Of a stretch of 64,000 nt of DNA, positions 58,910 through 59,352 are shown in pieces; the stretch's first letter is position 1; each line of letters begins with the position of its first letter. Below the pieces are notes generated by a model that did no database searches, had not been told where the DNA came from, and worked only from the letters and a program-made list of their open reading frames with translations. Source of the stretch: Escherichia coli (GTDB lineage Bacteria; Pseudomonadota; Gammaproteobacteria; Enterobacterales; Enterobacteriaceae). The position numbers were made by a program, and so were the translations under genes. The DNA is taken from NCBI RefSeq assembly GCF_003334385.1, contig NZ_QOWN01000013.1; one strand, written 5' to 3'.

Positions 58910-59352
58910 TCAGAACGACCAGTTCACACCAGCCACCGCGTTCCACGGGGATTCCACACCGGCACCATGGCTATACCCCACCCCGAGATGTCCGCTAAAC
59001 GTACTGCTGAATGAGGCTTTAATAGCTGCCTGGTATATTCCACGTCTGCCCGACAAATCATTGACGAAATTACCGTCATTATTCACCTTCACCCGGTTAT
59101 CATCGACAAATTCTTTGCGCACAGCCGCCTTCAGCCAGGGTTCATTTCCATACCGTTCCCCAGGCGCATGTTGTAACTCAGCGTTGCACCCAGTTCACGA
59201 TATATACTGCGGGTATCGACTGATTTCGATTCCATGCCATTGGATAAATGATAGTAGCGTCTAAGTGACCTAAGCTCTGCTGCAACATCAGCCCGCAGGC
59301 ACCAGACCAGGGGATTCATCCTGAAGAGACAGCGCAGGTGTATTGTGTTCAC
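58910..59352 (-). pseudogene. ycgI: Autotransporter beta-domain remnant (ycgI-like pseudogene)
   Basis: Two short minus-strand ORFs in different frames; the downstream one ends AVAGVNWSF, a typical autotransporter C-terminal signature; no passenger domain or signal peptide. Confidence 0.7.

Follow-up and report, generated by a model that had tools for sequence, protein, structure and literature searches.

ycgI beside the Escherichia coli min operon: very probably the 3' stump of an AIDA-I-type adhesin gene, left by a deletion and a later frameshift

A known paralogue of the gene from which the locus examined here derives is ypjA/EhaD, which encodes an AIDA-I-type adhesin of 1526 aa at the CP4-57 edge and is intact in K-12. 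YpjA has been reported to enhance biofilm formation (PMC12547504). At the min operon, K-12 W3110 carries the pseudogene ycgI (RefSeq locus Y75_RS06135), which we found in the literature only in passing mentions as a pseudogene. UTI89_C1357 has been termed a pseudogene homologous to ycgI (PMC6206680), and a review counts YcgI among the K-12 outer-membrane proteins, with a modelled barrel that is 'deformed or broken' (PMC7383365).

The window analysed here is a 64,000-nucleotide stretch of E. coli DNA. In it, minE ends at 58538 and the ycgI remnant lies downstream on the minus strand, followed by the small genes ymgJ, ymgI, ymgG and ymgD. The position between minE and ymgJ is the same as in W3110, and positions 58540-59830 (1,291 bp) were 100% identical to W3110 and also to many other phylogroup-A-like strains. 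The W3110 equivalent of 58910-59253 is labelled in RefSeq as an autotransporter outer membrane beta-barrel domain-containing protein, 'frameshifted; incomplete; missing N-terminus'. The two copies carry the same frameshift and show no substantive difference: the fragment is ycgI, an E. coli pseudogene already on record. Over the 47.9 kb compared, the window and W3110 were 99.9% identical. Two Ldr type I toxin genes were seen at 13008-13650 (plus strand), compared with three in W3110 (ldrA, ldrB, ldrC), one 535-bp repeat unit being absent from the window. The two ldr copies and a frameshift in ycgV, described below, indicate that the strain is a close K-12 relative and not W3110 itself.

Table 1. 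Positions of the features of the ycgI locus and of two further autotransporter genes in the window
Feature	Position	Strand	Basis or description
Autotransporter-derived remnant (ycgI)	58910..59253	-	blastn against the intact allele (L004 9796-10140); RefSeq pseudogene coordinates; TIGR01414; PF03797
Deletion junction	59253..59254	-	in gene orientation, ...TTAGACGCTACT joined to ATCATTTATCC...; blastn and alignment against the intact allele
Frameshift site	59144..59145	-	one base lost, GGAAATTGAACC to GGAAATGAACC (gene orientation); alignment of alleles, column 313
5' extension of the 73-aa ORF, 33 codons from the GTG	59254..59352	-	former upstream non-coding DNA
39-codon ORF, PGAP hypothetical protein WP_001131446.1	59288..59407	-	in the retained leader; overlaps the 73-aa ORF interval
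Stem-loop	58872..58897	-	AAACUGCGC-UUCG-GCGCAGUUU, then UCGUUU; 13 nt past the stop codon
ycgH autotransporter pseudogene	60569..63216	-	lesions measured against the intact AR_0067 gene
ycgV autotransporter	26866..29732	+	1-nt deletion (one G) near 29490, CGCAGGCAAC to CGCAGCAAC

Two neighbouring minus-strand ORFs in different frames cover the locus, one of 70 aa (58910..59122) and one of 73 aa (59131..59352) that begins with a GTG at 59352. The 70-aa ORF ends in AVAGVNWSF (tail SPWNAVAGVNWSF). Upstream of the two ORFs we found no bigger ORF, signal peptide or passenger-like sequence. When the frameshift was repaired, the resulting 114 aa matched TIGR01414 at positions 319-432 of 432 (E 2.3e-21) and PF03797 at model positions 152-254 of 255 (E 2e-10) in profile searches. 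The 70-aa lower ORF alone also matched the barrel family (E 2.3e-9); in the same search the 73-aa upper ORF alone gave no family match. Compared with solved type Va translocators, the remnant aligned with the last 112 residues of Vag8 (7akv; E 7e-4), and relative to BrkA and Vag8 it represents the C-terminal part of the barrel only. Together the TIGR01414, PF03797 and Vag8 matches indicate that the barrel similarity is real, well past what chance would produce, and limited to the C-terminal ~40% of the translocator domain. The alternating sequence pattern suggests that about five of the twelve barrel strands survive.

Among the features of a type Va autotransporter, the remnant thus shows translocator beta-domain homology, and it also has a C-terminal beta-signal with an aromatic final residue (GVNWSF). 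A complete 12-stranded barrel, a Sec signal peptide and a passenger are all missing, codons 1-1022 being deleted, and there is no unbroken frame with a start codon: the native ATG is gone and 1 nt is lost beside 59144. A sequence-only reading of this DNA had described a ycgI-like barrel remnant ending in VNWSF, split over two frames and lacking passenger and signal peptide. The profile matches and the W3110 annotation bear this out, as do the two ORFs separated by the single-base loss, and the similarity to translocator domains on which that reading depended is clear.

An intact counterpart was found at the same interval, between ymgJ and minE, in strain AR_0067 and in others, in the comparison with full-length homologues that the sequence-only reading had proposed. 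The AR_0067 gene is 3,411 bp long and encodes 1136 aa (WP_029701745.1, named 'adhesin-like autotransporter YpjA/EhaD' by PGAP); it is orthologous to the remnant and has the same flanks. Positions 58910..59253 correspond to codons 1023-1136 plus the stop of this 1136-codon ancestral gene, that is, to 114 codons and a stop in 344 nt, compared with 345 nt where no base has been lost. Across these last 114 codons the AR_0067 allele and the remnant differ by 14 substitutions in 345 nt (~96% identity), and relative to the 3' ends of longer alleles of the same locus the remnant DNA was 93-97% identical.

The AR_0067 protein keeps everything that the window is without. Its N-terminus is signal-peptide-like (MNRISRYYFHRSVLSLLIAAMIYAPPGMTA), and eight AIDA repeats (PF16168, each with E <= 0.001) precede a Pertactin domain at 641-759, an Asn-Pro repeat linker and an Autotransporter beta-domain at 875-1114. 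The passenger resembles the structures of Ag43, TibA and AIDA, and residues 854-1136 align end to end with the BrkA translocator (3qq2; E 6e-23). AlphaFold2, run on the intact barrel domain (residues 841-1136) as a single sequence, gave a pLDDT of 29. The repeats, the pertactin-like junction, the barrel and the identity to ypjA that mark the AIDA-I-type, YpjA/EhaD group were found in the intact orthologue and not in the remnant. On its domain content and its identity to ypjA, the ancestral gene is classed as that of a predicted AIDA-I-type (type Va) autotransporter adhesin and as a paralogue of ypjA/ehaD.

Alignment of the window with the AR_0067 record (L004) located the lesion. Positions 59254-59830 matched L004 6123-6700 at 99.3% identity, a match that ends 29 bp before the ATG of the intact gene, and positions 58540-59253 matched L004 9796-10503 at 93.2%. 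The intervening 3,095 bp (L004 6701-9795) are missing from the window. They comprise the final 29 bp of the leader and codons 1-1022; the start codon and signal peptide are thus gone, as are the whole passenger and the first ~60% of the barrel. At the junction (23-nt sequence TTAGACGCTACTATCATTTATCC) we searched for microhomology and for a mobile element; no mobile element was found, and the overlap is 1 nt (T) at most. An imperfect TAT(T)CATTT motif was seen there, but it does not fit the product of simple slippage. The junction was identical in six divergent deletion-type strains (five besides the window's), with remnants up to ~5% apart. This points to one deletion event.

The deletion allele now predominates in E. 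coli. Genomes in which a single place matched 80% or more of the collinear K-12-type query were counted as having the deleted architecture. There were 4,471 of them (82%) among the 5,426 complete E. coli genomes; such a collinear match excludes the undeleted allele, the two halves of which stand 3.1 kb apart. The K-12-type query had a median of three matching places per genome, owing to the ypjA paralogy of the ancestral gene. A 1,101-bp probe over the breakpoint and the minE-side flank (coverage at least 80%) showed that sequence beyond the breakpoint is kept in 713 of the 5,426 genomes (13%). In an evenly spaced sample of the ranking, half of the fully covered probe matches were O157-type pseudogenes and half were annotated as intact. 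We estimate, as opposed to count, that the intact min-locus gene is present in roughly a few hundred genomes.

The relation to ypjA raises another possible origin, in which no full gene ever stood in this lineage and a partial copy of the ypjA 3' end was inserted ectopically beside minE. The remnant was 95.5% identical to the 3' end of K-12 ypjA, and the 355 bp upstream of it were 89% identical to the ypjA upstream region, as such a copy would have it. The identity to ypjA is, however, no higher than that to the min-locus alleles themselves (~96% for AR_0067 and 97.1% over 714 bp for O157). Undeleted alleles also occupy the exact site, between the same two flanks, in the 713 genomes mentioned above, and the flanks in the window abut precisely where the 3,095 bp of the AR_0067 allele are absent. 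We consider an ectopic copy exceedingly unlikely, and favour loss from a full-length gene in place.

ypjA stands at a separate chromosomal locus, and its passenger is longer than that of the min-locus gene; lengthwise, K-12 ypjA and the AR_0067 gene share about 86-95% nucleotide identity. The duplication linking the two loci begins ~385 bp ahead of the start and ends 10 bp beyond the stop (K-12 MC4100, L010 2447-7422). ypjA adjoins ypjF/yfjZ at the CP4-57 island edge, a location that prompts the question which of the two copies came first. A recent gene conversion from ypjA was also considered and is unsupported, the remnant being ~4-5% distant from both K-12 ypjA and the min-locus alleles.

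The junction also corrects the 5' boundary of the pseudogene. The interval 58910-59352 had been read as barrel remnant throughout; this holds for 58910-59253 and fails for the remaining 99 bp (59254-59352), since autotransporter homology ends at 59253 and the sequence beyond is upstream DNA that happens to be in frame. The ORF-based interval is therefore 443 bp long, compared with the 344 bp truly homologous to the autotransporter gene.

By placing the upstream GTG in frame with the remnant, the deletion could have created a new gene. The stump might then be domesticated as a small protein, of 147 aa in unshifted alleles (33 new and 114 barrel residues) or as the 73/70-aa pair seen here, and its C-terminal beta-signal could, for example, interact with the BAM machinery. 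The native upstream region, presumably holding the promoter, is still present in the window. On the other hand, reading of the sequence showed no convincing Shine-Dalgarno before the GTG, the 73-aa ORF is without a family match, and the 33-codon substitute N-terminus is not signal-peptide-like, so that a domesticated product would be unable to reach the outer membrane. A promoter scan returned 5 sites against 3.8 expected, and none was placed to drive the remnant. Enrichment in a UTI89 filamentation screen spans the ycgI homologue, which would suit a functional product; its authors noted that this may reflect linkage to minCDE only (PMC6206680).

The retained leader contains a 39-codon ORF. 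Equivalents of it lie 64 nt upstream of ypjA (L010 2648-2767) and of the intact min-locus gene (L004 6546-6665), and the paralogous loci share 96% DNA identity over it. All five of the 5/120 nt that differ change an amino acid and a Shine-Dalgarno sequence was not found, which speaks against a leader peptide or a conserved protein. A conserved non-coding leader is more likely than a gene.

The base lost beside 59144 separates the 73-aa ORF from the 70-aa ORF. Unshifted 345-nt remnants were found in O91:H21 FWSEC0008 and in GMM076. K-12-type strains carry one 1-nt deletion in the remnant; a different one is common to 21KM1392 and TUM2826, the latter having a further 1-nt deletion as well. In MEI1-1023 a further ~270 bp, most of the remnant, is gone between GTGAACTGG repeats, and O157:H7 has a longer min-locus copy with an IS1203 insertion. 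Lesions that differ from lineage to lineage are the pattern expected of DNA that would be under no constraint. These disruptions, at least three of them independent and in separate lineages, and the near-complete secondary deletion argue against domestication. With an intact orthologue at the same locus, a mapped lesion and independent secondary lesions, ycgI has the attributes of a unitary pseudogene derived by deletion.

In O157:H7, IS1203 interrupts the min-locus autotransporter 753 bp from its 3' end. Past the IS, strain F8797 (L002 9165-10378) has unrelated DNA (an acetyltransferase fragment and ompT), suggesting that the IS mediated a rearrangement; Gim1-1 has the remainder of the autotransporter gene after the IS.

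Among the remnant alleles, pN/pS was 0.13-0.29, with pS up to 0.13. Taken by itself this looks like purifying selection, neutral decay in situ predicts otherwise, and it counts in favour of domestication. However, the variants GGT/GGC and GAAATT/GAAGTT, for example, segregate in the remnant and undeleted allele classes alike. Because these polymorphisms are common to both classes, the low pN/pS can be explained without selection, as variation imported by recombination from undeleted alleles. Between the GMM076 remnant and the intact AR_0067 allele there was a single difference in 345 nt. The simplest reading of the eight sequences is that recombination may have moved variation that arose in functional copies into and out of the deletion allele. 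We also observed that, in the window compared with AR_0067, the remnant and the minE-side spacer were ~93% identical, against 99.3% for the DNA just upstream of the junction. This contrast in identity, together with the common polymorphisms (58910-59253 compared with L004-L008), suggests a recombination mosaic around the deletion. We regard domestication of the stump as very unlikely. Its specific form, in which the many strains with an unshifted remnant transcribe the 147-codon fusion from upstream and the low pN/pS reflects selection on the new protein or its beta-signal, is less credible still.

The DNA might instead have been kept for a role in cis, terminating transcription or acting as an insulator where the min operon and the ymg genes converge. 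Just past the stop codon a stable stem-loop is predicted (RNA fold -19.9 kcal/mol, z -3.4, with 0/200 shuffles equally stable), and the minE-ycgI spacer contains two plus-strand terminator-like hairpins. These hairpins sit outside the coding remnant, though, and have no RNA family match: a permissive Rfam search over 58200-60000 returned a chance-level rsmX match only (E 0.96). The remnant itself can also disappear almost completely, as it has in MEI1-1023. Retention for a cis role consequently appears to us highly improbable, and the persistence of an inert stump is preferred. The stem-loop past the stop codon probably served the ancestral gene as its intrinsic terminator, although a terminator consensus scan did not list it. 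A strong terminator-like hairpin at 58814-58840 on the plus strand (CCCGCCGTAACTGGCGGG, then CTTTTTTT) lies ~250 nt past the minE terminator (58563-58590). It is preceded by neither an annotated gene nor a convincing ORF, Rfam gave no match there, and it may mark an unannotated small transcript.

Two further autotransporter genes in the window belong to the same protein class as ycgI and are likewise inactivated. They differ from it in being near-full-length and broken by point lesions, as opposed to deletion stumps. ycgH, which is intact in AR_0067, has a nonsense mutation at codon 512 of 887 and has lost 15 bp in frame and, near 60644, a single nt. ycgV is intact in W3110; in the window its ORF stops at 29505, giving 879 aa compared with 955 aa in W3110, which leaves the final 76 residues of the barrel in the wrong frame. 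The earlier description of ycgH as decayed and of ycgV as frameshifted agrees with these lesions.

We conclude that ycgI is very probably the inert 3' stump of an AIDA-I-type adhesin gene, produced by deletion and then frameshift. The ancestral gene would once have stood between ymgJ and minE. A single illegitimate-recombination event would have removed the 3,095 bp, including the end of the leader with its ribosome-binding site, and later, in the lineage of the window, the loss of 1 nt would have divided the 114 codons between two frames. The stump would persist simply because nothing has removed it. It lacks an export signal and a passenger and retains no more than the C-terminal ~40% of a 12-stranded barrel. 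A working autotransporter is therefore impossible, and the remnant is presumably without expression or function.

The new details are modest. They consist of the deletion end-points, a revised 5' boundary, allele frequencies and the recognition that the frameshift is secondary. The locus is a case of ordinary, fully mapped erosion of an adhesin gene, with three broken autotransporters in one 64-kb window. As a practical correction, only 344 bp of the customary 443-bp ycgI interval derive from an autotransporter, and K-12 'OMP-ome' lists should neither include YcgI as an outer-membrane barrel nor model it as one. An estimated few hundred of the 5,426 genomes have the intact min-locus paralogue, a YpjA-like adhesin gene that gene-presence surveys could mistake for ypjA.
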